Shown: piece after piece, positions 5,917 to 52,404 of the stretch | Numbering within the stretch: position 1 is the first letter of the stretch | Layout of the letters: each line of letters starts with the position of its first letter | IMG/VR virus record: IMGVR_UViG_3300034272_002779 | DNA from: an uncultured virus (IMG/VR IMGVR_UViG_3300034272_002779) | Taxonomy: Duplodnaviria > Heunggongvirae > Uroviricota > Caudoviricetes | DNA length: 64,000 bases | Reading direction: 5' to 3' (one strand) | Notes under the pieces: generated by a model | Told to the model about the DNA's origin: nothing | Database searches by the model: none | Seen by the model: only the letters and a program-made list of their open reading frames with translations | Translations under genes and position numbers: made by a program

Positions 5917-6129
5917 ATGGAAGATGTAATCATCGACAAGCTAACTAAGATGAAGAGAGACAAGAAGTACGCTGCTCTATCACTTCATCCACCATTCGGG
6001 TCTAAAGTTATCCAAAGAGAAAATAACAGGCTATTTATCAACGAGGGAAGGGACGGTAAGTTCGAAGGGGTTTCCGAGGAGTTATACGATGAGTTGGTTG
6101 GCAAATTTGATTCACGATATAGAAGATAG
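5917..6129 (+). CDS. hypothetical protein
   Basis: ORF behind repeated promoter. Confidence 0.7.
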   Translation: MEDVIIDKLTKMKRDKKYAALSLHPPFGSKVIQRENNRLFINEGRDGKFEGVSEELYDELVGKFDSRYRR

Positions 6130-6133
6130 AAAC

Positions 6134-6382
6134 ATGGAAAAAGATTTAGTTTTTAGAGCAATCGTTACTGGGCCTAAGGAATACCTTCCTGAGGGTACAC
6201 TTATAGAGAACTTTGTAATCTCACCTTATGATGTTGATGAGGTGAGAGAGGACGGAGAGACCGAGGATGATGCTATTGCATATCTGAAGGAAGAGTACAT
6301 AGCCGAGTGGGAACAACGGTGGTGCAAGGTGCAGCTGTTTACCGAAGAAGAGTATCAACAAATCAAAAACCAAATACCATGA
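6134..6382 (+). CDS. hypothetical protein
   Basis: Start reassigned to MEKDLVF. Confidence 0.7.
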   Translation: MEKDLVFRAIVTGPKEYLPEGTLIENFVISPYDVDEVREDGETEDDAIAYLKEEYIAEWEQRWCKVQLFTEEEYQQIKNQIP

Positions 6383-9941: not shown

Positions 9942-10304
9942 ATGAAATTAAAAAGATTTAGCTTAGACATTGCATTTGACGGACCTTGCAATGACACTGG
10001 AAAATTCCTAACCTATCTTCAAGAGGTATGCGAGGTATTCAATCTGCAAATTGTTGGTCTTATTCCAGTTGGTCCGGGAGGAGCTTGGCCAGAGGTTACC
10101 TTCCGAGGTACTGAAGAGGATCTCACCAAATTTTCAATTGCATTTCATGATGATCCAGAATTGGGTCGGGAAATGATTGATGATTATCTTGAAGAAGATG
10201 ATGAGCAGGCATTTTCAGTTTTTGTCGATGAGAGATATACGACCAAGGGTAATCGTCAATTCATCAATGAGGATGGGACATTATCATTCAAGGAATGGGA
10301 ATAG
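9942..10304 (+). CDS. hypothetical protein
   Basis: GPGGAWPEV motif; promoter and terminator. Confidence 0.75.
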   Translation: MKLKRFSLDIAFDGPCNDTGKFLTYLQEVCEVFNLQIVGLIPVGPGGAWPEVTFRGTEEDLTKFSIAFHDDPELGREMIDDYLEEDDEQAFSVFVDERYTTKGNRQFINEDGTLSFKEWE

Positions 10305-11034: not shown

Positions 11035-11248
11035 AAGACGAGGATTAAAAAATAAACAATTACACTAAAGGGGCTTATGCTCCTTTTTTTGTGTCCATAG
11101 GTTTAGTATAGGTTTGCATCCTTTGCAGCTGGAAACACCGTCGCCAACGGTGGATGGATACAGACCGATTGGATTTAATCCTTATGATTTTATTTTTTAT
11201 CCTATTTGGAATACTTATATTTATGCTATAACCAATTAAAATTTAACT

Positions 11249-21496: not shown

Positions 21497-22240
21497 ATGA
21501 AGAATCTAAAGACCTATAAGATGTTTGAGAGTGTGGGTGAGCTTACACCGGAGCAGATCGAGTGGCTTGATGAGTGCACTGATGGTACCTGGACACTCAA
21601 TCCACAAACAGGACTGGTTGATGTGAAGAGGGATTTCTATTGTACTGGAGAGAACCTGACAGATTTCAAAGGAGTTAGGTTTGGGGTGGTCGAAGGAGAT
21701 TTCAATTGCCATAACAATCAGCTCACCACACTGGAGGGAGCACCTCATGAGGTTGGTGGAAATTTCGATTGCGACAACAATCAGCTCACCACACTGGAGG
21801 GAGCACCGCGGAAGGTTGGAGATATTTTCGGTTGTAGAGGAAACCAGCTCACCTCACTGGTGGGAGCACCTCATGAGGTTGGTAGTGATTTCTATTGCCA
21901 TAACAATCAGCTCACCACACTGGAGGGAGCACCACAACGGGTTGGAAGGAATTTCAGATGTGACAACAACCAGCTCACTTCTCTAGTGGGAGCACCACAG
22001 GATGTTGAAGGGGATTTCTATTGTGGGGACAACCCAGTTTCTGAAGAGACACTCGATAACATATTCTACCGCATGACGGAAGGAGAGAGTTATATCAAGG
22101 CTGTAGAGTCTCTCTGGAGCAAGATTCCGTTAGAAGATCAGGTGCTGCTATACAGACCTGAGTTTGAGTGGGTAAGTCCAGAGGAGAGAAGAAAGCTGGA
22201 AGCGTTAAAGGCTTACCATGGATTTAAAGGTATGATATAA
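21497..22240 (+). CDS. LRR-like 22-aa repeat protein, tagged
   Basis: NNQLT(T/S)L(E/V)GAPxxVGxxFxC repeated about 5 times; MKNLKTYKMFES. Confidence 0.85.
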   Translation: MKNLKTYKMFESVGELTPEQIEWLDECTDGTWTLNPQTGLVDVKRDFYCTGENLTDFKGVRFGVVEGDFNCHNNQLTTLEGAPHEVGGNFDCDNNQLTTLEGAPRKVGDIFGCRGNQLTSLVGAPHEVGSDFYCHNNQLTTLEGAPQRVGRNFRCDNNQLTSLVGAPQDVEGDFYCGDNPVSEETLDNIFYRMTEGESYIKAVESLWSKIPLEDQVLLYRPEFEWVSPEERRKLEALKAYHGFKGMI

Positions 22241-22987
22241 ATGAAGAATCTAAAGACCTATAAGATGTTTGAGAGTGTGGGTGAGCTTACACCGGAACAG
22301 ATGAACTTTATGAACATGTGTGCACCGGAGGGAAATTGGCAATTTAATCCAGAGACTGGAGAGGTTGACGTGGATGGAAATTTTGGCTGCTCTCGTATGG
22401 ATCTGCCAGATTTTAAAGGGATACGATTCGGTGAGGTCACAGGAGATTTCCTATGCAGAACGAATAGACTCACTTCGTTAGAAGGAGCACCCCGTGAAGT
22501 TGGTGGTGAATTTGATTGCAGGGATAATCAGATCACTTCACTAGAGGGAGCACCACAGAAAGTGGGCACCGATTTTGACTGCGGAAGAAATCAGCTCACT
22601 TCACTGGTAGGAGCACCACAGGAGATAGCTGGAACTTTCGGCTGCGAGGAGAACAATCTAGAAAACCTAATTGGAGCACCTAGAAGAGTTGGTGAAGACT
22701 TCTGGTGCAGACGAAATCAACTCACCTCACTGGAGGGTGTTCCAGAGAGAATTGGAGACACACTCTATTCTGGTAAGAATCCAGTTTCTGAGGACGCATT
22801 CTTAAGCATCTATGATATGATGAACAAAGGCGAATCTTACATAGGAGCTGTTGAAGCTGTTTGGCCGGAACTTGGTGGCGAAGACAAGATGCTCCTATAT
22901 CGTCCCGAATTCTCTTGGGTTAGTGGAGATGAGCTTAAAGGAATCAAGGCAATGCTTGCCTACAAGGGGATTAAATTTATGCTGTGA
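22241..22987 (+). CDS. LRR-like repeat protein, paralog
   Basis: Same repeats; first 56 nt identical to the previous gene. Confidence 0.85.
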   Translation: MKNLKTYKMFESVGELTPEQMNFMNMCAPEGNWQFNPETGEVDVDGNFGCSRMDLPDFKGIRFGEVTGDFLCRTNRLTSLEGAPREVGGEFDCRDNQITSLEGAPQKVGTDFDCGRNQLTSLVGAPQEIAGTFGCEENNLENLIGAPRRVGEDFWCRRNQLTSLEGVPERIGDTLYSGKNPVSEDAFLSIYDMMNKGESYIGAVEAVWPELGGEDKMLLYRPEFSWVSGDELKGIKAMLAYKGIKFML

Positions 22988-40197: not shown

Positions 40198-41526
40198 TTA
40201 TTTTTCTTTATCTTTAGGTAAATCGAATTCAAAAGTGATAGCATATTGGATGATCTCAACGCTATCTGCTTTGATCTCTCCATCAACAAGATATTCAATC
40301 TCCTTGTCTATTGTGTAAGAATCACCTAAAAGTACACCTTTAACGTCTAAATATACTTTTCTATATTTTTCATATTCTCCAGGAACGTCCTTAGCTTGAA
40401 TTTTACTGAAGTCGTCAGCTTTTACCGTAATTACACCTTTTAAGTCAGGATATAATGTTTCAAGATAAGTCTTAACCTCATTTGCACGATCAACAACTAA
40501 TTTTTTGTTGATTGGTCCTTGTCCATCAGGCTCATAAGAAGCACCACCAGTAATTACGATACTCTCAGGTTTACCTGCTAGAGGTGCAAGAGCAGCAGTA
40601 AGTAATTTGTCTATATTAGCTTTGTTTTTCAAATTAAGTTTAGCTGATCCCTTTTCAAACATAGCATCACCACCGTCAATTGGAACCTGATAAGCTTTAA
40701 CCTCTCCCTTAATTATATCCTTGGTAAAATCCTTCTTGATAAGGGTGTCAGGAATTGTGTCTCCTCCTCCCTGAACTACGTTACCTACTCCGTATATAAC
40801 AAATGTTGAATATGCTCTCGCATCGTCCTTTTTGTTGGCTGTCTTGTACGCGAATGTTAAATCTGGAATTACTTTTGAATCATTTCCAGGAGTTGCGGAG
40901 CTATTTCCGTTAAAATTTATTCCACTAGCAATACTAGCTATTAAAAATTGATCGTGGGCACCGCTGTTGTAAATATAGTCAGACTTACCACTATACCATT
41001 TTTTGTGCTTCTTGTCAGAACTCCCATAAGGAAAATCAACAGAATAATAAAGGTTACTTATATTAACTAATGTTAATAAGTCGTTGATATCTATCCATGC
41101 AGAATCCTTCATCATCTTTTCCAATTCTCCTCCATCTGCTCCCGTAGGAAGACCTATTGATGCAGCTAATTGAACCTTACCGTTGATTAAAGCTGGATAC
41201 ACAACTTTTTTTATCTCGGTTGTAGTTTTTTCTGTTATCTGTACTCTATCAGGATATACGACATTCTCATCTATCGCACTTTTAATTCCATTATTAAGGT
41301 CTCCTAATTGTTTTCCCATTAATGGTGCTATTTTACTATCTGATGCACTCGTAGGAGATTTATCATAAGCTAGTCTAGCTGCATCGAATCCCTTCTTAGC
41401 ATCTGCATCTAGAAAGGAACTATTTGAACTAAGGAAAGATTTAAAGTCCATGGGAGCCTCTTTTGCTTCATTAATGAACCTAACGAAAGAATTAAAACTT
41501 TCAAAAACTGGTCTGTTATTTTTCAT
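40198..41526 (-). CDS. tagged protein with C-terminal OmpA-like peptidoglycan-binding domain
   Basis: FEKGSA.L...ITGGAS...NKKL..DRANEVK.YL...YRKV. Confidence 0.65.
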   Translation of the reverse strand: MKNNRPVFESFNSFVRFINEAKEAPMDFKSFLSSNSSFLDADAKKGFDAARLAYDKSPTSASDSKIAPLMGKQLGDLNNGIKSAIDENVVYPDRVQITEKTTTEIKKVVYPALINGKVQLAASIGLPTGADGGELEKMMKDSAWIDINDLLTLVNISNLYYSVDFPYGSSDKKHKKWYSGKSDYIYNSGAHDQFLIASIASGINFNGNSSATPGNDSKVIPDLTFAYKTANKKDDARAYSTFVIYGVGNVVQGGGDTIPDTLIKKDFTKDIIKGEVKAYQVPIDGGDAMFEKGSAKLNLKNKANIDKLLTAALAPLAGKPESIVITGGASYEPDGQGPINKKLVVDRANEVKTYLETLYPDLKGVITVKADDFSKIQAKDVPGEYEKYRKVYLDVKGVLLGDSYTIDKEIEYLVDGEIKADSVEIIQYAITFEFDLPKDKEK

Positions 41527-41674
41527 GCTGTTTTATTTTTATTTTTCAAACTGTAAACTATATATCCAGACAAATTACATTTTTTTGGAATTTTAATCGG
41601 GATAGATCCGATAAAATTTTTTCCCAACGAGAAATATTATTATCTTTGTACTGTACAATTAATCACAACAAAAA

Positions 41675-41748
41675 GGTCCCGTAGCTCAGCTGGATAGAGC
41701 AACTGCCTTCTAAGCAGTAGGTCTCAGGTTCGAATCCTGACGGGATCA
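41675..41748 (+). tRNA. tRNA-Arg(UCU)
   Basis: Cloverleaf, anticodon loop CT-TCT-AA. Confidence 0.95.
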
Positions 41749-41774
41749 CTAAAGAGTTCTTTCAAATAACGAAT

Positions 41775-41856
41775 GCTTTCTTGGTGGAATTGGTAGCCCC
41801 GCTAGACTTAGGATCTAGTGCCGAGAGGTGTGAGAGTTCGAGTCTCTCAGGAAGTA
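41775..41856 (+). tRNA. tRNA-Leu(UAG), long variable arm
   Basis: Loop CT-TAG-GA. Confidence 0.9.
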
Positions 41857-41860
41857 CTCA

Positions 41861-41934
41861 GGTCCCTTAGCTCAGTTGGTTAGAGCAACTGACTCATAAT
41901 CAGTAGGTCCACGGTTCGAGCCCGTGAGGGACCA
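41861..41934 (+). tRNA. tRNA-CAU, probably Ile2
   Basis: Loop CT-CAT-AA; GGTCCCT acceptor resembles ileX-type tRNAs. Confidence 0.85.
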
Positions 41935-41948
41935 CAAAAATTAAAAAA

Positions 41949-42200
41949 ATGGAAACCCAGGAATCTTTAATAAAAAGAAACGAATCCAGAGACAAGCTAA
42001 TCCAAGAGCTTAATAATTTGGGTTATCTGGTCGTAACATATGACTACAATTATAGATTACCCGGGGATGAAAGAGTTTACCCCGATATAAGTGTTATGCA
42101 AAGTATTATTACAGATAAACACGGGGATTACATGGAATGCGAGATCGATAGTATAGTCGATGAAGAGGCTGATGACATGGATTTTTTGTGTAGGAAATAA
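41949..42200 (+). CDS. hypothetical protein
   Basis: ORF track. Confidence 0.65.
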   Translation: METQESLIKRNESRDKLIQELNNLGYLVVTYDYNYRLPGDERVYPDISVMQSIITDKHGDYMECEIDSIVDEEADDMDFLCRK

Positions 42201-42271
42201 CTATATGTTTATTTTTTTATCCCGTAATAGAACTTTACATTTAAGGATTATTAATTATTAAACCTTTAAAA

Positions 42272-42682
42272 ATGCAACTAGAAAATCTAAATCAGGTAAC
42301 TACTGAATTTAAGGATGGTCTAAACCGGGTAACTATCAAAGTTAAACACACAAATCCAGATGCGGAAGTTAATTTCACCGCTATTGGAATTGGTAGAGAC
42401 AAGAGAGAAGCCGCTATCTTTGGATTAGGTATGTTCTTTACCGTTATGGACGGACAAACTGAGGAGGGTGAGATAACGAGGGGAGAGGATGCAATTAGTA
42501 TTATTAACGAGTATTCTGGTATGGAAGACGTCGAAAAGATAATCTCAAACGATTTAGAAGTAAATCGACTTTTCAATTTCTATGAATCCACCGAGATAGA
42601 GTACCAATGGGACAAGACAGAAAACTCTAAACCAGGAGGATACATCTCAGAAATGGAAATATTGGAAGAAAGTTTTGAATAA
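42272..42682 (+). CDS. hypothetical acidic protein
   Basis: Early-type promoter upstream. Confidence 0.7.
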   Translation: MQLENLNQVTTEFKDGLNRVTIKVKHTNPDAEVNFTAIGIGRDKREAAIFGLGMFFTVMDGQTEEGEITRGEDAISIINEYSGMEDVEKIISNDLEVNRLFNFYESTEIEYQWDKTENSKPGGYISEMEILEESFE

Positions 42683-42751
42683 TTGAAAAAAATTATCTAA
42701 ATTAGCGAAACTAAAAATAGAGTCGATATATAAGACTCGAAACAAAGAAAA

Positions 42752-42874
42752 ATGAAAAACAAATTCGGAAATATCGTTAAACCGTTTATGCCTCAGGCTA
42801 ACGCACCGATTGCACAGGTGGGGTTTGCTAAGTGGTATAATGGCAACGCAAAAAATCCGGATTTGATTAGATGA
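42752..42874 (+). CDS. putative attenuator leader peptide 1 (40 aa)
   Basis: MKNKFGNIVKPFMPQANAPIAQVGFAKWYNGNAKNPDLIR; composition matches the downstream tRNAs. Confidence 0.75.
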   Translation: MKNKFGNIVKPFMPQANAPIAQVGFAKWYNGNAKNPDLIR

Positions 42875-42901
42875 TTAAATAAATAGATCACCATAACTAA
42901 G

Positions 42902-42936
42902 AAACTCCGGATCCACAAGATTCGGAGTTTTTTTTT
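42902..42936 (+). terminator. attenuator terminator 1
   Basis: AAACTCCGGATC-cacaa-GATTCGGAGTTT plus T-run, just before tRNA-Phe. Confidence 0.85.
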
Positions 42937-42938
42937 GC

Positions 42939-43011
42939 GGTGCGGTAGCTCAGTTGGTAGAGCACGGGACTGAAAATCCCGGTGTCGGCGGTTCGATCCC
43001 GCCCCGCACCA
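42939..43011 (+). tRNA. tRNA-Phe(GAA)
   Basis: Cloverleaf. Confidence 0.95.
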
Positions 43012-43041
43012 CTGAACTTTTAAGTTCTTTGAAATAAAAAT

Positions 43042-43119
43042 AGAGTAGTTGGCCAATTGGTAGGCCGCCTCATTTGGGATGAGGACATAGTGTCGGTTCG
43101 AGTCCGGTCTACTCTACCA
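43042..43119 (+). tRNA. tRNA-Pro(UGG), CCA encoded
   Basis: Cloverleaf, A1-U72. Confidence 0.9.
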
Positions 43120-43120
43120 C

Positions 43121-43194
43121 GGGGGGTTAGCTCAGTTGGCTAGAGCACTTGCCTTGCACGCAAGGGGTCATCGGTTCGAGTCCGATACTCTCCA
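43121..43194 (+). tRNA. tRNA-Ala(UGC)
   Basis: Cloverleaf, G3-U70. Confidence 0.95.
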
Positions 43195-43200
43195 CTAAAC

Positions 43201-43273
43201 ACGTCGGTAGCTCAGTTGGTAGAGCACTGGTCTCCAAAACCAGGTGTCGGAGGTTCGAGCCCTCCCCGGCGTG
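43201..43273 (+). tRNA. tRNA-Trp(CCA)
   Basis: Cloverleaf. Confidence 0.95.
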
Positions 43274-43283
43274 CAAACTACAG

Positions 43284-43354
43284 TGTCCTGTAGTGAAATG
43301 GCATCACACGGCGTTTTGGCCGCCGGGTTAGAGGTTCGAGTCCTCTCGGGACAA
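43284..43354 (+). tRNA. tRNA-Gln(UUG)
   Basis: Cloverleaf, U1-A72. Confidence 0.9.
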
Positions 43355-43384
43355 CTAAAGGTTCTTTGACATGTTGGCGTAAAT

Positions 43385-43458
43385 TGTCACGTAGCTCAGT
43401 TGGTTAGAGCATCTGACTGATACTCAGAAGGCCGGTGGTTCAAATCCACCCGTGACAA
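43385..43458 (+). tRNA. tRNA-Ile(GAU)
   Basis: Cloverleaf. Confidence 0.95.
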
Positions 43459-43518
43459 CTTAAAAATAAAGTAGTTAACTATGGAAAGTGACAAGAGCGA
43501 CAAGAGTCGCAAGAGAAT

Positions 43519-43593
43519 GATCTCGTAGCTCAGTTGGTTTAGAGCACCGCACTTTTAATGCGGGAGTCGTGGGTTCGAGTCCCACCGGGATCA
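43519..43593 (+). tRNA. tRNA-Lys(UUU)
   Basis: Cloverleaf. Confidence 0.95.
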
Positions 43594-43598
43594 CTTAA

Positions 43599-43712
43599 GG
43601 GCAGGACGCCTACTGGACCGATGCCGGGAGGTCGTTTGGAAGTGGTTAGAGGCCACAATTCATCTTTATCGGGGATGTCTGTTTGTAAAAGTCCAAGCGC
43701 TTGGTTCTGCCC
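43599..43712 (+). ncRNA. candidate rod-like structured RNA
   Basis: GGGCAGGAC/GTTCTGCCC closing stem, TGGAC/GTCCA, GTGG/CCAC. Confidence 0.5.
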
Positions 43713-43730
43713 CCGGTAACTAAACTATAA

Positions 43731-43805
43731 GGACTAGTAGCTCAGCTGGTTAGAAGCACATGACTGTTAATCATGGGGTCGTAGGTTCGAATCCTACCTA
43801 GTCCG
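43731..43805 (+). tRNA. tRNA-Asn(GUU)
   Basis: Cloverleaf. Confidence 0.93.
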
Positions 43806-43811
43806 CAATAA

Positions 43812-43883
43812 GCAGGTATCGTATAACGGTTATTACTTCTGACTTCCAATCAGAAGATTGGAGTTCGATTCTCCATACCTGCT
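43812..43883 (+). tRNA. tRNA-Gly(UCC)
   Basis: Cloverleaf, U73. Confidence 0.93.
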
Positions 43884-43958
43884 CACACGCAATTTCGTAC
43901 TTTGTTTAGATATACATGCCGGGTGATCCTCCCGTTGAATCACGGGAGCCGGCTCCAT

Positions 43959-44030
43959 AGCGAATTAGCTCAGAGGAAGAGCGTCCGGCTCATATCCGGA
44001 AGGTCGGGATCTCAGAATTCCCATTCGCTA
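43959..44030 (+). tRNA. tRNA-Met(CAU) with atypical T-loop
   Basis: Loop CT-CAT-AT; T arm GGGAT-CTCAGAA-TTCCC lacks TTC. Confidence 0.75.
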
Positions 44031-44052
44031 CTAAAAATAAAAAAATGATTTT

Positions 44053-44547
44053 TTATACCTGATTAAGAGTGGTGTCCCATTTACTTGTAGCTAGAAGCAT
44101 AAATCCCTGCAAGACGCTGCTAATTTCACCTAATATTGTGTCGTATGCTAGAAGACAAACATTTACTCTATCTTTTGCTATATCCTCCGGGGTTAATTCT
44201 TTGTCGTTTTTACACTGTGAGTGGACCATTAGCAAAACGCAAAGGACTAGGAATCTGTTTATTACTCGGGCCTCTCCTTTGAGTACAACTGCCTTCTCTC
44301 TTTTTATTTTAAAATCGATTAAGGCCTTTTCTAATGTTTTATAGTCTGGGTATTTGGCTTTGAACCTTAAATTTCCTCTCTTTGCTATTGCAGGATATAC
44401 TTTATCGCGGAGAAGCTCAGGGTATCTAAGTTCGTTTGAGTTCTCTTTAAATATAAAATCTAACATCATCGGAAATTCTGGAATTTGCTTACCCCAAACC
44501 CAGCTTTCATTGATAAAATCGTCGAATTCTAATAAATTTTTGTCCAT
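44053..44547 (-). CDS. tagged protein inserted antisense in the tRNA array
   Basis: MDKNLLEFDDFINES; ATATATA upstream. Confidence 0.75.
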   Translation of the reverse strand: MDKNLLEFDDFINESWVWGKQIPEFPMMLDFIFKENSNELRYPELLRDKVYPAIAKRGNLRFKAKYPDYKTLEKALIDFKIKREKAVVLKGEARVINRFLVLCVLLMVHSQCKNDKELTPEDIAKDRVNVCLLAYDTILGEISSVLQGFMLLATSKWDTTLNQV

Positions 44548-44627
44548 GACTATAATTTTGTTCGGATTATATATTTAATTATTTTTTTATCACGCATTTG
44601 ATACTTATCTTTGTATCAAATCAACTT

Positions 44628-44700
44628 AGTCTCTTAGCTCAGTTGGTAGAGCATCTGGTTTACATCCAGCGTGTCGCAGGTTCGATCCCTGCAGAGACTA
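44628..44700 (+). tRNA. tRNA-Val(UAC)
   Basis: Cloverleaf. Confidence 0.92.
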
Positions 44701-44713
44701 CGAATTTTAAAAA

Positions 44714-44796
44714 GGGTAGGTTGAGCAATTGGTTGGCTCGCCAGACTGTAAATCTGGTTCCTTCGGGGCGTGCAGGTTCGAATCCTGCCCTACCCA
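44714..44796 (+). tRNA. tRNA-Tyr(GUA)
   Basis: Cloverleaf with long variable arm. Confidence 0.93.
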
Positions 44797-44817
44797 CTAA
44801 CAATTAAAAACAAAAAA

Positions 44818-45204
44818 ATGAATCAAGAGAAAATCTCCGAGATGATTATGAAGCTGGAGCTCATCCCTTCAAGAATTGCAAAGCATTCAGTTGAGCTATT
44901 AGATCTCAACGAGAAACTGCAAGAATCCATAACTGAAATTAATCAATTAGAATCAGCGATTAAGTCTAGTGTTAATTCTGCAGAAGACGCCAACGGAAAA
45001 AAGCTTTACAGCAATGCGGAAGCTAGAGAGGCGGCTTTTTTACAGATCGCATTTGACGACGAGGATCTAAAGAGGTCTAAAGAGGTTCAGGCTGAGCTGC
45101 AGAGAAAAATATCATTGGAGCGTATCCAAATAGAAGCTCTTTCTAACGAGCAGAGGAATGCAAGAACAATAGTTCAATATTTTTCTTCCCTGCATGAAGT
45201 CTAA
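44818..45204 (+). CDS. coiled-coil protein
   Basis: Start MNQEKI; GKKLYSNAEAREA motif. Confidence 0.75.
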   Translation: MNQEKISEMIMKLELIPSRIAKHSVELLDLNEKLQESITEINQLESAIKSSVNSAEDANGKKLYSNAEAREAAFLQIAFDDEDLKRSKEVQAELQRKISLERIQIEALSNEQRNARTIVQYFSSLHEV

Positions 45205-45242
45205 TCGGAACATTAAGGTTTGTTCTAAATAAAAGATTGGTT

Positions 45243-45512
45243 ATGAATAAAATATATCTCCTTGCTTCATTTTTAGTGTGCATATATTCATGCAGCTCTA
45301 TTAAACCAGCTAAAGACAACATCTCGATAGAGTGGGAATATTCCGGAGCAGATAGTATCTCCCTGATGAAGGGAGATGAAGTACTGGTTCCCGGAATGCC
45401 GGTTGGGGAAACAAAACAGCTTCATCTGAACGGTTTCAGCAAGGGAAAATATAAGGTTGTAGTTTACGATAATTCTCAAGTGGTAGAACTTAAGACTTTT
45501 TCTCTCAGATAA
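45243..45512 (+). CDS. small lipoprotein, beta-sandwich-like
   Basis: Signal peptide ending YSC; GKYKVVV. Confidence 0.6.
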   Translation: MNKIYLLASFLVCIYSCSSIKPAKDNISIEWEYSGADSISLMKGDEVLVPGMPVGETKQLHLNGFSKGKYKVVVYDNSQVVELKTFSLR

Positions 45513-45513
45513 C

Positions 45514-45657
45514 ACTCTTTTAGTCTATATTGGTGCGGGAGTAAGTTCACCTTATCTAAATGGTAAGATCGGAGCTTGCTATTTCTACACTAAGGGTCTT
45601 AGCTCTGAAGAGGTAAGTCAGAATTTTAATGCAACAAAATCAAAATATTCTTTATAA
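45514..45657 (+). pseudogene. startless C-terminal fragment of a LamG/ConA-like domain
   Basis: VYIGAG..PYLNGKIGACYFYTKGLSSEEVSQNFNATKSKYSL*. Confidence 0.6.
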
Positions 45658-45730
45658 ATTTTTTTAATTCGAAACTTTTCTCTATTTTTGCATAGAAATT
45701 AAAAATCCGATAGGATATATAAAAACGCAA

Positions 45731-45826
45731 ATGAAAAATTTATTCCATATAGACCTAAGTTTACTCACATCGATATCGTCGTTGACATGTGATGAAACTA
45801 ACTGTGCTATGCTAAGGGATAAATAA
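45731..45826 (+). CDS. putative attenuator leader peptide 2 (31 aa)
   Basis: MKNLFHIDLSLLTSISSLTCDETNCAMLRDK; composition matches the downstream tRNAs. Confidence 0.75.
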   Translation: MKNLFHIDLSLLTSISSLTCDETNCAMLRDK

Positions 45827-45846
45827 CCATATTAATAATTAAATTT

Positions 45847-45879
45847 AAAAGGTCCCTTAGATTCTAAGGGACCTTTTTT
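45847..45879 (+). terminator. attenuator terminator 2
   Basis: AAAAGGTCCCTTAG-att-CTAAGGGACCTTTT plus T-run. Confidence 0.85.
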
Positions 45880-45914
45880 ATTTTGTGCGGTCTTTGACAT
45901 GTTGGAACTAGAAA

Positions 45915-45998
45915 GGGGGAGTAATTAAGCTGGCGCTTGACCTAGTCTTGAAAACTAGCGGTACCTTCGGGTATGGGGATCGATACCTCACTCCTCCG
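45915..45998 (+). tRNA. tRNA-Ser(UGA)
   Basis: Long variable arm, T-loop ATCGATA. Confidence 0.85.
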
Positions 45999-46003
45999 CA
46001 AAA

Positions 46004-46090
46004 GGAAAGTTGTCCGAGTGGTTTATGGAGCACGCTTGGAAAGCGTGTGCACCCGGAAGGGTGCCATAAGTTCGAATCCTATACTTTCCG
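46004..46090 (+). tRNA. tRNA-Ser(GGA)
   Basis: Long variable arm. Confidence 0.92.
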
Positions 46091-46095
46091 CAAAA

Positions 46096-46168
46096 GCCGG
46101 GGTAGCTCAATTGGTAGAGCTCTTGATTTGTAATCAAGTGGTTGTCAGTTCGATTCTGACCTCCGGAG
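46096..46168 (+). tRNA. tRNA-Thr(UGU)
   Basis: Cloverleaf with G1.A72 mismatch. Confidence 0.9.
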
Positions 46169-46175
46169 CAAATAC

Positions 46176-46248
46176 GTCACTGTGGCCGAGCCGGTTTAGG
46201 CGGGGGTCTGCAAAACCTCACACACAGGTTCGAATCCTGTCAGTGATT
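46176..46248 (+). tRNA. tRNA-Cys(GCA)
   Basis: Cloverleaf, U73. Confidence 0.92.
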
Positions 46249-46265
46249 CTAAAAAATAGGAAACT

Positions 46266-46688
46266 ATGGAAAAGGAAGAAAAGATCGAGAACATTAAAAA
46301 TGCGATCGCTGCCGAAAAGGCTGAAAGAGAGAGAAAAAGGAAAGAGTATTGGTGTAATCTTCCTAAATTTGAGAAGGCACATGATGTACCGACTATACCT
46401 AGAGTGGATGAAGAAGAATATAGAAATTTCTACGTACCAAAACTAATAGAGGCTGGTGCTATTCCAAAGAAAGATCTTGTTGACGGTCAGCTCTACTATG
46501 GTGATTATAGAAATGCAGAAGTTGGTAAATGGAATGCTAAAGAAAACGTTTTTGATCATTGGAGATACAAATTTGGATTCAGAAAGGATACGTGCAACCA
46601 CTTCGAAGATGATGACGGGTTTGCATTATTCGTTCCTATTAGATTAGCTAACGAAGAAGAGATAGAAGAATATCTCAATACAAAATAA
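46266..46688 (+). CDS. conserved phage hypothetical protein
   Basis: IPKKDL.DG..Y.G.YRNA...W....F...R.KFG......HFEDDDGFALFVP. Confidence 0.8.
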   Translation: MEKEEKIENIKNAIAAEKAERERKRKEYWCNLPKFEKAHDVPTIPRVDEEEYRNFYVPKLIEAGAIPKKDLVDGQLYYGDYRNAEVGKWNAKENVFDHWRYKFGFRKDTCNHFEDDDGFALFVPIRLANEEEIEEYLNTK

Positions 46689-46693
46689 TACAC

Positions 46694-46771
46694 GGTGTGC
46701 GTAGCTCAGTTGGTTAGAGCGTCTGATTGTGGTTCAGAAGGTCGGCAGTTCGATCCTGCTCGTGCACCCCA
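46694..46771 (+). tRNA. tRNA-His(GUG)
   Basis: G-1/C73, CCA encoded. Confidence 0.93.
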
Positions 46772-46772
46772 T

Positions 46773-46843
46773 GCCTCGATAGCTCAAGGGTAGAGCATCG
46801 CTTTGGTATAGCGGGGATATGGGTTCGATTCCCATTTGAGGAT
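46773..46843 (+). tRNA. tRNA-Thr(GGU)
   Basis: Cloverleaf with G1.A72 mismatch. Confidence 0.88.
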
Positions 46844-46853
46844 CTTGACCAAT

Positions 46854-46927
46854 GTTCCCGTAGCCCAACAGGCAGAGGCAATGGACTTAAAATCCATACA
46901 GTAACGGTTCGAATCCGTTCGGGAATA
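46854..46927 (+). tRNA. tRNA-Leu(UAA), short variable loop
   Basis: Loop CT-TAA-AA; variable region ACAGT. Confidence 0.88.
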
Positions 46928-46933
46928 CTAAAT

Positions 46934-47013
46934 AGGTGTGTATCCCCTCATGCTTATACCATGTAGAAAGGGTAGTTGGTTACACGAGGGTTCAAGTCCC
47001 TCCGCACCTACCA
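46934..47013 (+). ncRNA. non-canonical tRNA-like RNA with UAU anticodon
   Basis: Acceptor AGGTGTG/CGCACCT-A-CCA, normal T arm, no D arm in the usual place, loop CT-TAT-AC. Confidence 0.7.
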
Positions 47014-47022
47014 ATAAACAAT

Positions 47023-47096
47023 ACCTCGGTAGCCCAATTGGCAGAGGCGCTAGATTTAGGATCTAGTTAGTGTGGGTTCGAATCCCACTCGAGGTA
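47023..47096 (+). tRNA. tRNA-Leu(UAG), short variable loop
   Basis: Loop TT-TAG-GA. Confidence 0.88.
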
Positions 47097-47102
47097 CAGA
47101 AA

Positions 47103-47188
47103 GGAAAGTAATGCTCGATGGTGAGAGTGCCCGCCTGCTAAGCGAGGTGTCCGGGAAACCGGATGTGGTTCGATTCCACTGCTTTCCG
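47103..47188 (+). tRNA. tRNA-Ser(GCU)
   Basis: Long variable arm, G73. Confidence 0.82.
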
Positions 47189-47253
47189 CTTAATTTTTTT
47201 TTTAATTCGGGAAACAATATTAAATTTGGATCATAAATAATAAGAATAAACAT

Positions 47254-47328
47254 CGCGGGTTAGACTGGAGGTGGTTCCCAGCTCGGTCTCATAAGCCGAA
47301 GACACAGGTTCGAATCCTGTACCCGCTA
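47254..47328 (+). tRNA. initiator-type tRNA-fMet(CAU)
   Basis: CGCGGG start with unpaired C1; loop CT-CAT-AA. Confidence 0.85.
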
Positions 47329-47356
47329 CTTCTAGTAGTTCTTTGAACTAAAAATA

Positions 47357-47565
47357 TTGATAGTGGTCTTCCCCACCCAACGGATGTCGACAATCCAGGA
47401 GTGGAACCGGAATTCATCACCCTTTCTGCCGAGGCCTCGTAAAACTACGATTAAGCAGTTAAGATTGGAGCGAGATGGGTACTCCATCACTATCGATAAC
47501 ATTGGGCCAGATCAAGCCTCTTGCGAAAGCAACGTAATCTGCCTCCGTAACCACGCCGGAGGAAT
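47357..47565 (+). ncRNA. candidate structured RNA(s)
   Basis: GATAGTG/CACTATC closing stem, internal hairpins, GAAA tetraloop hairpin, CCTCCG/CGGAGG. Confidence 0.45.
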
Positions 47566-47569
47566 TTAA

Positions 47570-47643
47570 GGTCCGTTAGTAGAGTTGGTTACAACGCCGC
47601 CCTGTCACGGCGGAGGTCAGGGGTTCGAATCCCCTACGGACCG
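47570..47643 (+). tRNA. tRNA-Asp(GUC)
   Basis: Cloverleaf. Confidence 0.95.
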
Positions 47644-47647
47644 CAAC

Positions 47648-47920
47648 GAGTAAGAGGTACTCGCTTCGTTTTTGACTACGATAAAAGGTCACGGTTAATG
47701 TCCAGGTGGTAACCGGAATTGGTATTGAAGGGCTCCTATCTCTTAGGTAGGTATGGGTCAATATCATTAAAATACTGGAACTGAGATTAAAGGCAGGTAG
47801 CAGAGCCTCTCAGTAGCTTGACAGGTTTTTATGTGGTAAGACACTAATGAAAGTAATGGTTCTCGAAACAGCAAGAGAAACCCGTTAAAATCTAGCTTAG
47901 CAAATCTCACTAAGCGAAAC
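47648..47920 (+). ncRNA. candidate structured RNA(s)
   Basis: Stems CGGTTA/TAACCG, TGGTATTGA/TCAATATCA, ACTGAG/CTCAGT, GCTTAG/CTAAGC. Confidence 0.45.
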
Positions 47921-47922
47921 TT

Positions 47923-47994
47923 GGTCCCTTCGTCTATCGGTTAGGACGTTAGGTTTTCATCCTAGAAAGAGGGGTTCGATTCCCCTAGGGACTA
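47923..47994 (+). tRNA. tRNA-Glu(UUC)
   Basis: Cloverleaf. Confidence 0.93.
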
Positions 47995-48004
47995 CAAATT
48001 AAAT

Positions 48005-48118
48005 GGTGTAAAAGGACCAGACGATGACTCGGTATTACTGCCCGAGATACTAGTTCAGCAGCATGGTAGGTGACAGAGTACGTAGTCTGGTGAGACGGGT
48101 TCGATTCCCTCTACACCA
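48005..48118 (+). ncRNA. tRNA-like RNA with acceptor stem and T arm around a long insert
   Basis: GGTGTA/TACACC-A, GGG-TTCGATT-CCC, ACCAGAC/GTCTGGT stem. Confidence 0.6.
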
Positions 48119-48329
48119 CGATTCTCGGAGGAATGTTAGAGAAAAAACCCGATTATGAGGAAAGAGGGTTTGATTTCTATCTGGGAATTTTTTTAATTGT
48201 TTCTATAAAGCTGAGAATGTTTACGGTATTAGTTTACTGTAAACATTTTTGGTTTTTAGAGGTGTAGTTTTGGTTAATCCTGATATATAGATAGAGGTCT
48301 AAACACCTCATAAAAATAACCAAACAAAC

Positions 48330-48659
48330 ATGTTAAAATTTCTAAGAGATCTTTTCAATGACAACAACGACATCAATGAAAAATCAGTAGTTGGGTTTCT
48401 TTCTTTCCTTGCTATGGTTGCTGCTATGATAGTAGATCTAATCACTGGAGCTTTAGGAAAGGAGCTTTTAATTAACGAATTCATCTTCGATGGATTCCTT
48501 ATTATCACGCTGGGATCATTCGGTATTGCAGCAGTAGATAAATGGGTAACTAAAAGGGCAGATAATGTTAGACATAAATCTAACTTAGATGCTGGTTTGA
48601 ACCCTGAAGATCCATCTAATTCAGAAGACCCTATCGACTCTCCTACAGAGGATCAATAA
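48330..48659 (+). CDS. holin-like two-TM membrane protein
   Basis: Two TM segments, charged tail, late-type promoter. Confidence 0.55.
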   Translation: MLKFLRDLFNDNNDINEKSVVGFLSFLAMVAAMIVDLITGALGKELLINEFIFDGFLIITLGSFGIAAVDKWVTKRADNVRHKSNLDAGLNPEDPSNSEDPIDSPTEDQ

Positions 48660-48687: not shown

Positions 48688-49158
48688 ATGGCTTATAGAA
48701 TAATACTCAGAAGAGATGGTTCTACAAATTGGGAATCACAAAATCCAGTTCTTTTATTAGGAGAACCGGGATATGAAACAGATACTGGTAAATTTAAGAT
48801 TGGTGACGGATCTAGTATGTGGTCTGATTTGGACTACTATGTAGGAGCTACGGGAGGTACCGGTGCAACAGGAGCTGTTGGAATTACCGGTGCAACTGGA
48901 AGTGTCGGTGCAACTGGAGCTACCGGAGTAACTGGTCCAACCGGAGCTACCGGGGTTACTGGTCCAACCGGAGCTGCTGGTACTGGACCTAATACTTTCT
49001 ATGGTAATCAAACTATTGTTGGGGGAACATCAGGAACATTAATTCTCTCTGGTTATTCGGTTCTTAATTTTCCGGACGATCCTAGTGCTGCTACTGGCGG
49101 TGTACCTCTGGGAGGATTTTATCATAACGCTGGAGCTTTAAGAATCAGAATATCTTAA
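48688..49158 (+). CDS. collagen-like fibre protein
   Basis: LRR....W...[21 protein letters not shown]-terminal domain plus GxT repeats. Confidence 0.8.
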
Positions 49159-49240
49159 ACCGGCAATAAAAATTAAATAAGTCCGGCGTTAACACGTTGG
49201 ACTTATTTATGATATATAGATAAGAAAATAATAAGATAGG

Positions 49241-50278
<1,038 letters not shown>

Positions 50279-50346: not shown

Positions 50347-52404
50347 ATGAGCTACGACGACGAAATGGATGACATCCAACAAAACAAGAATAAAGTACCT
50401 GGAAAAACTCCAGTTCTGGATTCATATTCTAGAGATCTAACAGAGATGGCAGCTAAAGGGCAACTGGATCCAATTATAGGTAGAGACGAGGAGATCGAGA
50501 GAGTTTCTCAGATTCTATCTAGAAGAAAAAAGAATAATCCGGTTCTTATTGGAGAGCCCGGTGTAGGTAAATCTGCAATTGCAGAAGGTCTGGCTTTAAA
50601 GATTGTTCAGAGGAAAGTTTCGCGTACTCTACTAAATAAAAGAGTGCTAACTCTAGATCTAGGATCACTAGTTGCTGGAACTAAGTACAGAGGACAATTT
50701 GAGGAAAGAATTAAAGCAATTTTAGAAGAGCTTAAAGCAAACACTAATGTTATTATATTCATCGATGAGATCCACACTATGGTTGGCGCTGGTGGTGCTT
50801 CAGGTTCACTTGATGCTTCTAATATGTTTAAACCCCCACTAGCTAGAGGAGAGATACAGTGTATAGGTGCTACCACTCTTAATGAATACCGTCAGCACAT
50901 AGAGAAAGACGGTGCACTGGAAAGAAGGTTTCAGAAGGTACTAGTAAATCCACCAGATTCTGATACGACATTAGAAATTCTAGATAACATAAAAGCTAAA
51001 TATGAGGACCATCATAATGTTACTTATACGGAGGATGCGATAGTTAACTGTGTTAAGCTAACAGAAAGATACATTACCGATAGGAACTTCCCAGATAAAG
51101 CTCTAGACGCATTAGATGAAGCGGGGAGTAGAACACAACTTAGCGACGTGAAGGTTCCTGATTCGATAACAGCATTAGAAAAAAATCTGGAGCAAACTCA
51201 AAAAACAAAAAAAGAAGCAGTAGCTAAACAAGACTATGAGGGGGCTGCAAAATACCGTGACCAGGAAAGAAAAATTAAAATCTCACTTGATACTGAAATA
51301 AAAATCTGGGAAGAAAAACTAAAATCTAAAAGAAAGATAGTAGACGGGGAGAAGGTAGCTGAGGTCGTATCTATGATGTCAGGAATCCCCCTTAAGAAAG
51401 TTTCGGAAACCGAAAATGAAAGACTGGCCGTAATGTCTACCGAGTTAAAAGGTAAGGTAATAGGACAGGATCACGTAATAGAAAAAGTATCCCGAGCAAT
51501 ATTAAGAAACAGAATGGGATTAAAGGATCCAAATAAGCCAATCGGATCTTTCCTTTTTCTTGGTCCAACTGGAGTAGGTAAAACCCAACTAGCAAAAGAA
51601 TTAGCCGAATATATGTTTGGTGATAGGGATGCTATGATCAGAGTAGATATGAGTGAATACTCGGAAAAATTTGATGCTACTAAATTAATCGGAGCACCTC
51701 CGGGATATGTGGGCCACGATGAAGGTGGACAACTTACCGAGAAGGTAAGAAGAAAACCATATTCAATTGTTCTTTTTGACGAGATAGAAAAAGCACATCC
51801 GGAAATATTTAATTCTCTTCTCCAGATACTAGATGAAGGAAATATCACCGACAGCTTAGGTAGAAAAATAAACTTTAAGAACACTTTGATAATTCTTACC
51901 TCTAATGTTGGTCAGAGAAAACTTCAGGACTTTGGACCGGGTGTAGGATTTTCCACATCAACTAAAGCCAAATCTTCGGATCTGGAGAATGAAATGCTTT
52001 TAAAGAAAGAATTACAGAAAACATTTTCTCCAGAATTTATAAACAGACTGGATGATATTATTTACTTCAAAAATCTAGATAGAGAACATCTAATAAAAAT
52101 TCTAGACGTTGAACTATCTCGTGTTATACCTAGATTGGAATCATTGGGATACAAGATAAAGATTGCTGATGATTTAAAGAATAAAATATGTGAGGATGGA
52201 TTCGATCCTAAATTCGGTGCTAGACCACTTAAAAGAATCATGCAGAAGTACATAGAAGACACTCTAGCAGACTTAATGGTCCAGAATAAGATAGAGAATG
52301 GTTCTACCATAATTTTGTCCTATGACGTCAAAAAAGAAGGCGGAATAGAAAATCCAGTTAAGGTTAAAATAAATAATAAAAGAAAACCCAAGGACAATGA
52401 TTAA
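50347..52404 (+). CDS. clpC: ClpC-like AAA+ chaperone lacking the N-terminal Clp domain
   Basis: Two AAA modules ([16 protein letters not shown]), GYVG loop, UVR-type linker ([13 protein letters not shown]). Confidence 0.92.

Follow-up and report, generated by a model that had tools for sequence, protein, structure and literature searches.

Two putative ribosome-mediated attenuators with leader peptides matched to the tRNA arrays of an uncultured jumbo phage

The 64,000-nucleotide stretch of DNA analysed here (the window) comes from an uncultured virus of the class Caudoviricetes (IMG/VR record IMGVR_UViG_3300034272_002779) and contains two modules in which a short leader open reading frame (ORF) and an intrinsic terminator precede an array of tRNA genes. 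We propose, with a probability of roughly 80%, that these are two ribosome-mediated transcription attenuators of the trp/his type that control the tRNA operons of the phage. Judged from sequence, each tRNA set is probably made only when ribosomes decode the codons of its leader slowly. An earlier note on this DNA had suggested such attenuation for the first module. The suggestion is now supported by the covariation of leaders with arrays, by compensatory changes in the terminator, by purifying selection on the leader frame and by the placement, in 18 of 20 modules, of a segment complementary to the terminator 5' arm near the leader stop codon. These features, like the anatomy of the modules, their conservation and the leader-array match itself, are directly observed.

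The first leader ORF has 40 codons and lies where it had been reported. Its residues 1-36 are limited to M, K, N, F, G, I, V, P, Q, A, W and Y, all 12 of which are used, as claimed; residues 37-40 are D, L, I and R. The Ile codons are ATC, ATT and ATT, and a tRNA-Ile(GAU) gene is indeed present downstream. Compared with the proteome background, as the earlier note had proposed, the match is beyond chance. In the 49 long ORFs of the window, a fraction of 0.58 of all residues belongs to these 12 amino acids, so that the probability of 35 further residues all being in-set is 5.7e-9; given that, all 12 would be present with a probability of 0.28 (overall chance approximately 1e-9). The in-set run of leader 1 is the longest across all six frames of the window, and among 249 ATG ORFs of 25-80 amino acids (aa) the runner-up begins with just 11 in-set residues. 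Terminator 1 (hairpin AAACTCCGGATC-CACAA-GATTCGGAGTTT) was missed by a simple consensus scan of the window, yet is present in the RNA fold at the position previously given. The tRNA-Phe gene starts at 42939, only 2 nucleotides (nt) after the terminator, leaving no room for a promoter between them. The reported complementarity of ATCCGGA (42855-42861) to TCCGGAT of the terminator 5' arm was also found.

The statement that 12 matching tRNAs follow this leader holds in part. Those from Phe to Gly, and Val and Tyr, are called by ARAGORN, but the supposed tRNA-Met is an aberrant CAT tRNA (43959-44030) called by Rfam only (49.8 bits) and missed by ARAGORN, with an odd T arm and the T loop CTCAGAA. 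The Val and Tyr tRNAs are separated from array 1 by a 164-aa minus-strand ORF (44053-44547) and stand behind their own TAtcTTTG box (44608-44615). In relatives, the Val and Tyr tRNAs come directly after Gly, within the same array.

Module 2 sits 3 kb downstream of module 1, and the two leaders of this one phage use complementary amino-acid alphabets. The first gene past terminator 2 is a non-canonical tRNA-Ser(UGA) that was missed by ARAGORN and by the first Rfam pass of the window. It is 83 nt long, with the anticodon loop CUUGAAA, a cloverleaf fold and a Sec-like build (long acceptor and D stems), and is conserved in the related loci L042, L043, L057 and L058. Leader 2 has three TCG codons, which are explained by this tRNA, their predicted reader.

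Six further second-type leaders, making seven with that of the window, were found by searching for the conserved tRNA-Ser-like element, by a motif search in relatives and by an unbiased scan for an ORF followed by a terminator and tRNAs; their sequences are unlike one another (Table 1). The unbiased scan covered the tRNA regions of five relatives and returned seven leaders of the first and second types, one lipoprotein-like ORF and one ORF that overlaps the latter in a different frame. When the seven modules are scored for 19 amino acids, 46 combinations occur in leader and array, 41 are confined to the leader, none is confined to the array and 46 are absent from both (Fisher 1.5e-11). No array thus carries a tRNA whose amino acid is missing from its leader (46/46), and the true leader-array pairing ranks among the best 12 of 5040 permutations. 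In six of the seven modules the matched run extends over 13-19 residues, a length reached by none of 200,000 random peptides. The run in leader 2 of the window is 8 residues (P 0.0097), since two ATA codons break it.

For 16 modules of both types, the match of leaders to their own arrays is 11.66, compared with 8.23 +/- 0.85 when permuted (0/100,000 permutations as high). Leader codons thus change together with tRNA content across related phages, as the attenuation reading had led the earlier note to ask. Among the second-type leaders, Q, P and R appear only where the array has Gln, Pro or Arg tRNAs, and W only with tRNA-Trp. The sensing block (the central codon run matched to the array) is rich in Leu when the array includes Leu tRNAs, and has none in L061 and L043. 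In the leader of G006 (L061), 17 consecutive codons are readable by the anticodons of its own array, and the two ATA codons in the G002 leader are readable by the Ile2-like tRNA of G002.

Relatives of leader 1 were collected by a protein search, which gave two clusters with 17 variants, and then by alignments, which drew 11 viral-contig and 25 metagenome loci. The 36 related loci carrying leader 1 belong to uncultured jumbo phages (contigs up to 434 kb), and the public runs that contain the window stretch are lake-water metagenomes. The nearest related record, G001, corresponds to window positions 1-37942 and ends before the tRNA region. No relatives were found in a viral-contig search with the neighbouring proteins 46266-46685, 40198-41526 and 44053-44547 as bait. 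A degenerate pattern of the first eight leader codons gave four chance matches, all without tRNAs, and the pattern ATATATA..ATGAAAA was too loose, with 25 sites in five records of which 5 were true leaders.

The leader 1 ATG and its A-rich context are present in all 36 loci, and the whole ORF in 35. A tRNA array lies downstream in 32 of the 36; the other four end at most 130 nt past the ORF or inside it. The tRNA set of these arrays is near-constant and its order variable. For codons 2-31, the ratio of nonsynonymous to synonymous substitution rates (dN/dS) is 0.06-0.52, with dS of 0.3-2.8 (28 pairs among eight lineages), from which we read the frame as protein-coding and under purifying selection.

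Exact agreement between the amino acids of leader and operon, as claimed earlier, is limited to this phage and some relatives: the 12-only rule is exact over codons 2-31 in 9 of 34 distinct variants, and the other 25 have one to four Thr, Ser or Arg residues. In the same codons of the 34 ungapped variants, 28 alternative residue types are in-set and 10 outside, whereas the single-base neighbours of the majority codons predict an in-set fraction of 0.446 (p 2.7e-4 for the excess). The outside alternatives are limited to Thr and Ser plus a single Arg. None of D, E, L, H or C is found ahead of codon 32, but these residues are common from there on, in the tail that overlaps the segment complementary to the terminator. 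Some swaps (V/N, K/I, A/I and A/M) are biochemically odd, yet in-set. On sequence grounds, the variation in leader 1 looks like selection for an alphabet, though this is not the whole story.

Both modules begin with a box resembling TAnnTTTG, which we take to be the Bacteroidota -7 consensus. Among the 17 modules examined, all but one have a TAnnTT(T/A)G box whose end lies 38-53 nt 5' of the ATG (10 first-type modules and six of the seven second-type ones). The stem of the hairpin in the 5' untranslated region (UTR) of module 1 is altered on both sides in relatives (GAGTT..AACTC, TAGAT..ATCTA). The motif GATATATAA is common to both leader types, 14-30 nt 5' of the ATG (42726-42734 and 45715-45723; also in relatives), and in leader 1 sits within the small hairpin loop. 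Together with the box, the shared motif suggests a common origin or common control of the two modules.

On the predicted pairings, the full layout of an attenuator can be drawn, with segment 1 able to pair with segment 2 (1:2), segment 2 with segment 3 (2:3) and segment 3 with segment 4 (3:4, the terminator); segment 1 is an addition to the picture given in the earlier note. Structure covariation was assessed in 22 distinct first-type leaders. In terminator 1, 95.5% of cells are paired, with three compensatory pairs and 13 double-change cells (0/500 shuffles as high). The 1:2 pairing, which joins AAATTCGGA in codons 4-6 to TCCGGATTT in the tail, is kept in 82.3% of cells compared with 73.6% in shuffles, with 27 double-change cells (0/500 as high). 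A Gly6-to-Arg change (GGA to AGA) is seen in the lineages with the tail TCTGGA in place of TCCGGA. The corresponding pairing of second-type modules is present in the window, L043 and G006, and no clear segment 1 was seen in G002, G003, G004 or G005. In the full-length leader 2 RNA, ATTTATTCC (codons 3-6) pairs with GGGATAAAT in the last codons; the head-to-tail duplex is -9.5 kcal/mol (shuffle fraction 0.047).

No upstream sequence complements the 5' arm of terminator 1 better than segment 2 of leader 1 (-11.3 kcal/mol), which lies at -18 to -10 from the stop. In module 2, CTAAGGGA copies the 3' arm of terminator 2 and can therefore pair with the 5' arm TCCCTTAG (-13.5 kcal/mol; 0/300 shuffles as strong). 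A register-free test, run over the whole upstream region, placed the strongest complement of the 5' arm between -27 and +1 relative to the stop in the 18 modules referred to above; in 12 of the 20 the complement outscores 95% of shuffled upstream sequences. Six unrelated 5'-arm sequences show this placement (TCCGGATC, CTCCAGATC, CCGATTCT, TCCCTTAG, TCTCCT and CGGATC). All 12 amino acids of leader 1 have occurred by codon 30 and all seven of leader 2 by codon 22; these positions precede segment 2 by 4-5 codons, a distance consistent with how far a ribosome footprint reaches. The distance from the stop codon to the terminator is 20-36 nt, which places a terminating ribosome too far away to block the hairpin. 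Folding of the two alternative structures, proposed earlier as a check, gave a divided result: the minimum free energy (MFE) structure of the nascent leader 2 RNA is the 2:3 pairing, whereas leader 1 keeps 1:2 and the terminator.

Table 1. Coordinates of features of the two modules in the window, with the six second-type leaders found in relatives.
Feature	Coordinates	Strand	Description
Promoter-like box, module 1	42698..42705	+	TAAATTAG, one base off TAnnTTTG
5' UTR hairpin	42720..42738	+	GAGTC-GATATATAA-GACTC, seen in fold
Leader ORF 1	42752..42874	+	40 codons; peptide MKNKFGNIVKPFMPQANAPIAQVGFAKWYNGNAKNPDLIR
Segment 1, module 1	42761..42769	+	AAATTCGGA, codons 4-6; pairs with segment 2; MFE fold
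Segment 2, module 1	42854..42864	+	AATCCGGATTT, codons 35-38; alternative partners segment 1 or terminator 5' arm
Intrinsic terminator 1	42902..42936	+	12-bp hairpin (42902-42930), 3' arm entering 9-T run, end 42936; -15.3 kcal/mol
tRNA array 1	42939..44030	+	Phe, Pro, Ala, Trp, Gln, Ile(GAU), Lys, Asn, Gly (ARAGORN); aberrant CAT tRNA (Rfam)
tRNA-Val(UAC) and tRNA-Tyr(GUA)	44628..44797	+	ARAGORN; preceded by reverse ORF and own TAtcTTTG box
Promoter-like box, module 2	45683..45690	+	TATTTTTG
Leader ORF 2	45731..45826	+	31 codons, MKNLFHIDLSLLTSISSLTCDETNCAMLRDK; codons 6-23 rich in H, D, L, S, T, C, E
Segment 1, module 2	45738..45746	+	ATTTATTCC (codons 3-6); pairs with GGGATAAAT (45816-45824); MFE fold
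Segment 2, module 2	45811..45824	+	CTAAGGGA; complements terminator 2 5' arm TCCCTTAG
Intrinsic terminator 2	45847..45883	+	14-bp hairpin (45847-45877) and T run; -18.9 kcal/mol; found by consensus scan
Non-canonical tRNA-Ser(UGA)	45915..45997	+	Rfam tRNA-Sec model, 43.8 bits (gathering score 47), E 3.7e-8
tRNA array 2	46004..47995	+	Ser(GGA), Thr, Cys, 140-aa ORF, His, Thr, Leu, Leu, Ser(GCU), CAT tRNA, Asp, Glu; ARAGORN and Rfam
Second-type leader, L043			MKNLFHTSTSSSTSTTSCDEDNLRYTKG; tRNAs after: Ser, Thr, Cys, His, Ser
Second-type leader, G006			MKNLFHTTTSSSTSTSSCDEDTRALLRDR; tRNAs after: Ser, Ser, Thr, Cys, His, Thr, Ser, Glu, Asp
Second-type leader, G002			MSQIQYILDTLHLDHTSSTCESSIVMRREY; tRNAs after: Ser, Thr, Cys, His, Leu, Ser, Asp, Ile2-like CAT tRNA, Glu
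Second-type leader, G003			MKQVQYTLSSLHLDTTSTSCELSLCVEKEKVLV; tRNAs after: Ser, Thr, Cys, His, Leu, Leu, Ser, Asp, Glu
Second-type leader, G004			MKTLRQTSQLSLHTPSLSRPGGTGPVYEVKGS; tRNAs after: His, Ser, Ser, Leu, Arg, Gln, Pro, Thr, Leu...
Second-type leader, G005			MKTLTTTSLSLWHSLSPSRCSVLVRDGKFFE; tRNAs after: Cys, His, Trp, Arg, Pro, Thr, Leu, Leu

Each module, then, consists of a promoter-like box, a short 5' UTR and a leader of 31-40 codons that names the amino acids of the downstream tRNAs in its central codons. Segment 1 lies at codons 3-7, and segment 2, in the last codons, is complementary to segments 1 and 3; segments 3 and 4 form the terminator. We infer translation, stalling, readthrough, the kinetics and the natural trigger, and the switch would operate as follows. 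If the leader is not translated, 1:2 and 3:4 would form and transcription would stop. A ribosome at the end of the leader would cover segment 2, allowing 3:4 to form, again with termination. If a ribosome is slowed at any sensing codon while the next one occupies segment 1, segment 2 would stay free; it could then capture segment 3 before segment 4 is synthesized, and RNA polymerase would continue into the tRNA genes. New tRNAs would quicken decoding and the switch would shut again. Because the tRNA output would relieve the slow-decoding signal, this would amount to negative feedback on tRNA supply. Possible causes of the depletion that would trigger the switch are defence nucleases, phage-induced decay of host tRNAs and codon mismatch.

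A broader scheme, to which we give slightly less than even odds, is a self-correcting tRNA supply: the attenuators would share out the amino acids between them, sense decoding live, replace just the tRNA classes that have been lost and then switch off, with leader codons being rewritten as tRNA genes move between arrays. Four RNA-labelled public runs were compared with 42600-46100; they are stored as contigs, three are probably DNA, and their pieces are mostly the tRNAs of relatives, without starts, ends or strand. The only true metatranscriptome among them contains exact pieces at 44918-45065 and 45922-46100, which we do not take as evidence of transcription.

A number of observations weigh against attenuation by tRNA supply as laid out here. 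Some concern the match: the leaders of relatives include the out-of-set residues Thr, Ser and Arg, the Val and Tyr tRNAs of the window have their own promoter-like box, and one member of array 1, the CAT tRNA, is aberrant. Array 2 includes no Ile2-type tRNA for the two ATA codons of leader 2; the gene that is Ile2-like lies at 41861. The GGC, GTT, CCT and GCT codons require a U34 that reads all four codons of its box. Cellulophaga phage phi4:1, whose tRNAs are the most similar among GenBank phages, has no such leader, and the small ORFs in its array do not match their tRNAs.

Other difficulties concern the RNA. The best complement of the 5' arm lies elsewhere in two of the 20 modules (L048 and L057). 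Fixed-register 2:3 covariation is not significantly above shuffles among the 22 leaders (69.5% vs 68.1%, 48/500 as high); the columns involved are nearly constant within a lineage, and one lineage is in a shifted register. In leader 1 the 2:3 helix is just 7 bp (-11.3 kcal/mol) compared with -15.3 kcal/mol for the terminator. Leader 1 folds with masked ribosome sites always retain the terminator, and the nascent RNA retains 1:2, so that antitermination could only be kinetic. With segment 1 at codons 4-7, the ribosome would free segment 2 approximately 30 codons before being able to cover it, and the outcome would depend on a race with RNA polymerase.

The alternative that best survives is that the leader is translated and the switch real, with a signal other than tRNA supply: an arrest peptide, a small protein or general translation capacity (e.g. 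as a timer of infection stage). This is suggested by the block QVG(I/F)AKWYNG, which is near-invariant in the 34 variants while third codon positions change; the exceptions are one Asn-to-Ile and one Gly-to-Ser, both in the last two residues. Such invariance is not predicted by codon sampling alone and is a further point against sensing of tRNAs. Val23 is also always GTG, a rare Val codon in this phage (81/680), and TGGTATAAT (42833-42841, the Trp-Tyr-Asn codons) is fixed in 20 of 21 distinct leader DNAs while other Asn codons of the leader vary. We nevertheless consider a signal of this kind unlikely, as the second-type leaders have no such block and differ in sequence, and each still matches its own array. 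A peptide-specific role leaves unexplained both the tracking of tRNAs by Q, P, R or W and the complementary alphabets of the two leaders in one phage. As a separate observation, TGGTATAAT resembles an extended -10 element and might pause RNA polymerase or serve as an internal promoter.

It is very improbable that the leader is an ordinary small gene with its own terminator, matched by chance to tRNAs whose expression depends on leaky readthrough or on different promoters. In favour of this, phage tRNA regions commonly contain small ORFs and terminators, a lipoprotein-like ORF and terminator also precede a tRNA cluster in one relative, and a conserved motif, TCTTTGACAT, lies between terminator 2 and the first tRNA. 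These points are set against the low chance probability of leader 1, the matched runs of the second-type leaders, the covariation of the match with array content, the copying of the terminator 3' arm by segment 2 across lineages and the 2-nt gap between terminator 1 and tRNA-Phe.

We give similarly little credence to an RNA-only element, in which the hairpins would be signals for processing or stability of the tRNA precursor and the ORF would be untranslated. The four segments do covary as RNA, and tRNA precursors are processed beside such hairpins. This would not account for a dN/dS well under 1 with dS near saturation, the sharp change of alphabet at codon 32 or the ATG kept in its A-rich context at all 36 loci, and a hairpin with a 9-T run is a textbook intrinsic terminator. 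The readings rejected are a chance match (approximately 1e-9), a processing signal acting purely as RNA (dN/dS) and a T-box (no Rfam match in 41000-48500).

An Rfam scan of 41000-48500 at E up to 1 returned no T-box and no amino-acid leader family (His, Trp, Thr, Leu or others). The sole leader match in this region was PyrG_leader, over terminator 2, at 33.3 bits vs a gathering score of 65. To our knowledge, all known leader-peptide attenuators regulate genes for amino-acid biosynthesis or aminoacyl-tRNA synthetases. Like them, the modules have a short upstream leader ORF (40 and 31 codons, predicted to be translated), a terminator between leader and first regulated gene, a 1:2 hairpin that would sequester segment 2 in the absence of translation and codons matched to the operon product, here the amino acids of the downstream tRNAs. 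The regulated genes, in contrast, are tRNAs, so the element is not filed in any curated leader family.

The closest comparisons are the ilvGMEDA leader, with Leu, Val and Ile codons, and the thr leader, with Thr and Ile codons. These share with the present modules a short multi-amino-acid leader, alternative 1:2, 2:3 and 3:4 hairpins, a terminator before the first gene and a readout of ribosome speed. Their targets, however, are biosynthetic enzymes, and their leaders carry runs of two or three kinds of amino acid where those of the phage carry 12 (or 7), mostly one to few times each. In addition, segment 1 here lies at the very start of a long leader (31-45 codons), and the promoter boxes are of the Bacteroidota type. 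The trpL and hisL leaders are 14-16 codons long, sense a single amino acid and have their regulatory codons inside segment 1. The contrast between segment 2 covered at the stop codon and an upstream stall is common to both, as is termination through 1:2 when the leader is untranslated. In trpL and hisL the product amino acid relieves the stall through tRNA charging, whereas here the product would be the tRNA itself.

The pheST attenuator (pheM leader) controls a tRNA synthetase and senses Phe codons only. It resembles the modules as leader-peptide attenuation of a gene of the translation apparatus, and differs in that its target is a protein gene and its signal Phe alone, the genes downstream here being tRNAs. 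The T-box also couples a sensor of tRNA state to the choice between terminator and antiterminator, but binds one uncharged tRNA directly and does not need translation. The statement in the earlier note that no description was known of attenuation as a multi-tRNA sensor for phage tRNA arrays agrees with our search of the full-text literature (subscription-only papers were outside the search), which found no description of leader-peptide attenuation of tRNA genes, in phages or otherwise. Phage tRNA arrays have been presented as replacements for host tRNAs lost to defence nucleases (eLife 2023, PMC10264068; Nature 2024, PMC11464382). This role provides a biological reason for a tRNA supply matched to depletion; the papers appear to deal with what phage tRNAs do, not with control of transcription.

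Several other features of the tRNA regions were recorded. The CAT tRNA at 41861-41935, in an upstream Arg-Leu cluster, is Ile2-like (81% identity to an E. coli tRNA-Ile), and the CAT tRNAs at 47254 and 43959 had no match among E. coli tRNAs. The upstream cluster has a TAtcTTTG box (41641-41648) and no leader. In relatives, a terminator hairpin lies 6 nt 5' of a lone tRNA-Arg(UCG) with no obvious leader ORF (L037 approximately 10003-10037, L045 approximately 11040-11073, L054 approximately 6123-6157). The small lipoprotein-like ORF (a signal peptide with Cys, then a Thr/Ala/Val/Asp-rich tail) is found at 10749-10928 in L084 (G002), 2928-3101 in L022 and 1012-1197 in L045. In G002 it is followed by a terminator and then the Arg/Leu tRNA cluster that lies upstream; in L022 and L045 the ORF stands ahead of tRNA-Ser(UGA), and no terminator was seen after it. 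Its composition does not match the tRNAs that follow.

Long spacers with no called genes lie inside the tRNA arrays (46934-47013, 43595-43730, 47330-47569 and 47645-47922), the first with a weak match to the tmRNA model (18.2 bits), and may conceal small RNAs or more tRNAs of non-canonical build. The motif GGT(T)CTTTGACATGTTGG, which also has the shorter form GTTCTTTGA(A/C)A, recurs directly behind terminator 2 (45889-45905), at 43358-43375 and after several tRNAs (approximately 41756, 43018 and 47340), and is kept in relatives. The 5' end of the Rfam DUF2693 RNA model is weakly similar to it (13 bits). From its sequence and position, the motif could be a candidate processing site or promoter.

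Elsewhere in the window, a stretch of 0.5-1.1 kb (21497-22737) is repeated many times in the phage genome at 72-81% identity, as seen by BLAST against G001 (234-239 kb and 273-274 kb). Directly after the tRNA region (48688-50278 and 50347-52404) are two proteins with an Mtd_N domain and collagen repeats, and a ClpB/ClpC-like double AAA+ chaperone.

The purpose of phage tRNA genes has been argued for decades, and the control of their expression is almost unstudied. If attenuation by leader decoding is correct, this would be the first case known to us of leader-peptide attenuation of tRNA genes, and the most multivalent attenuator that we know of, with 12 amino acids in one leader. The ideas that phage tRNAs serve in replacement or counter-defence would become directly testable, with the depletion of one charged tRNA expected to open one module and leave the other closed. 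Such leaders could possibly be used as compact, programmable sensors for the decoding speed of chosen codons. For the phages themselves, it would mean that they measure decoding capacity and respond with the matching tRNAs.

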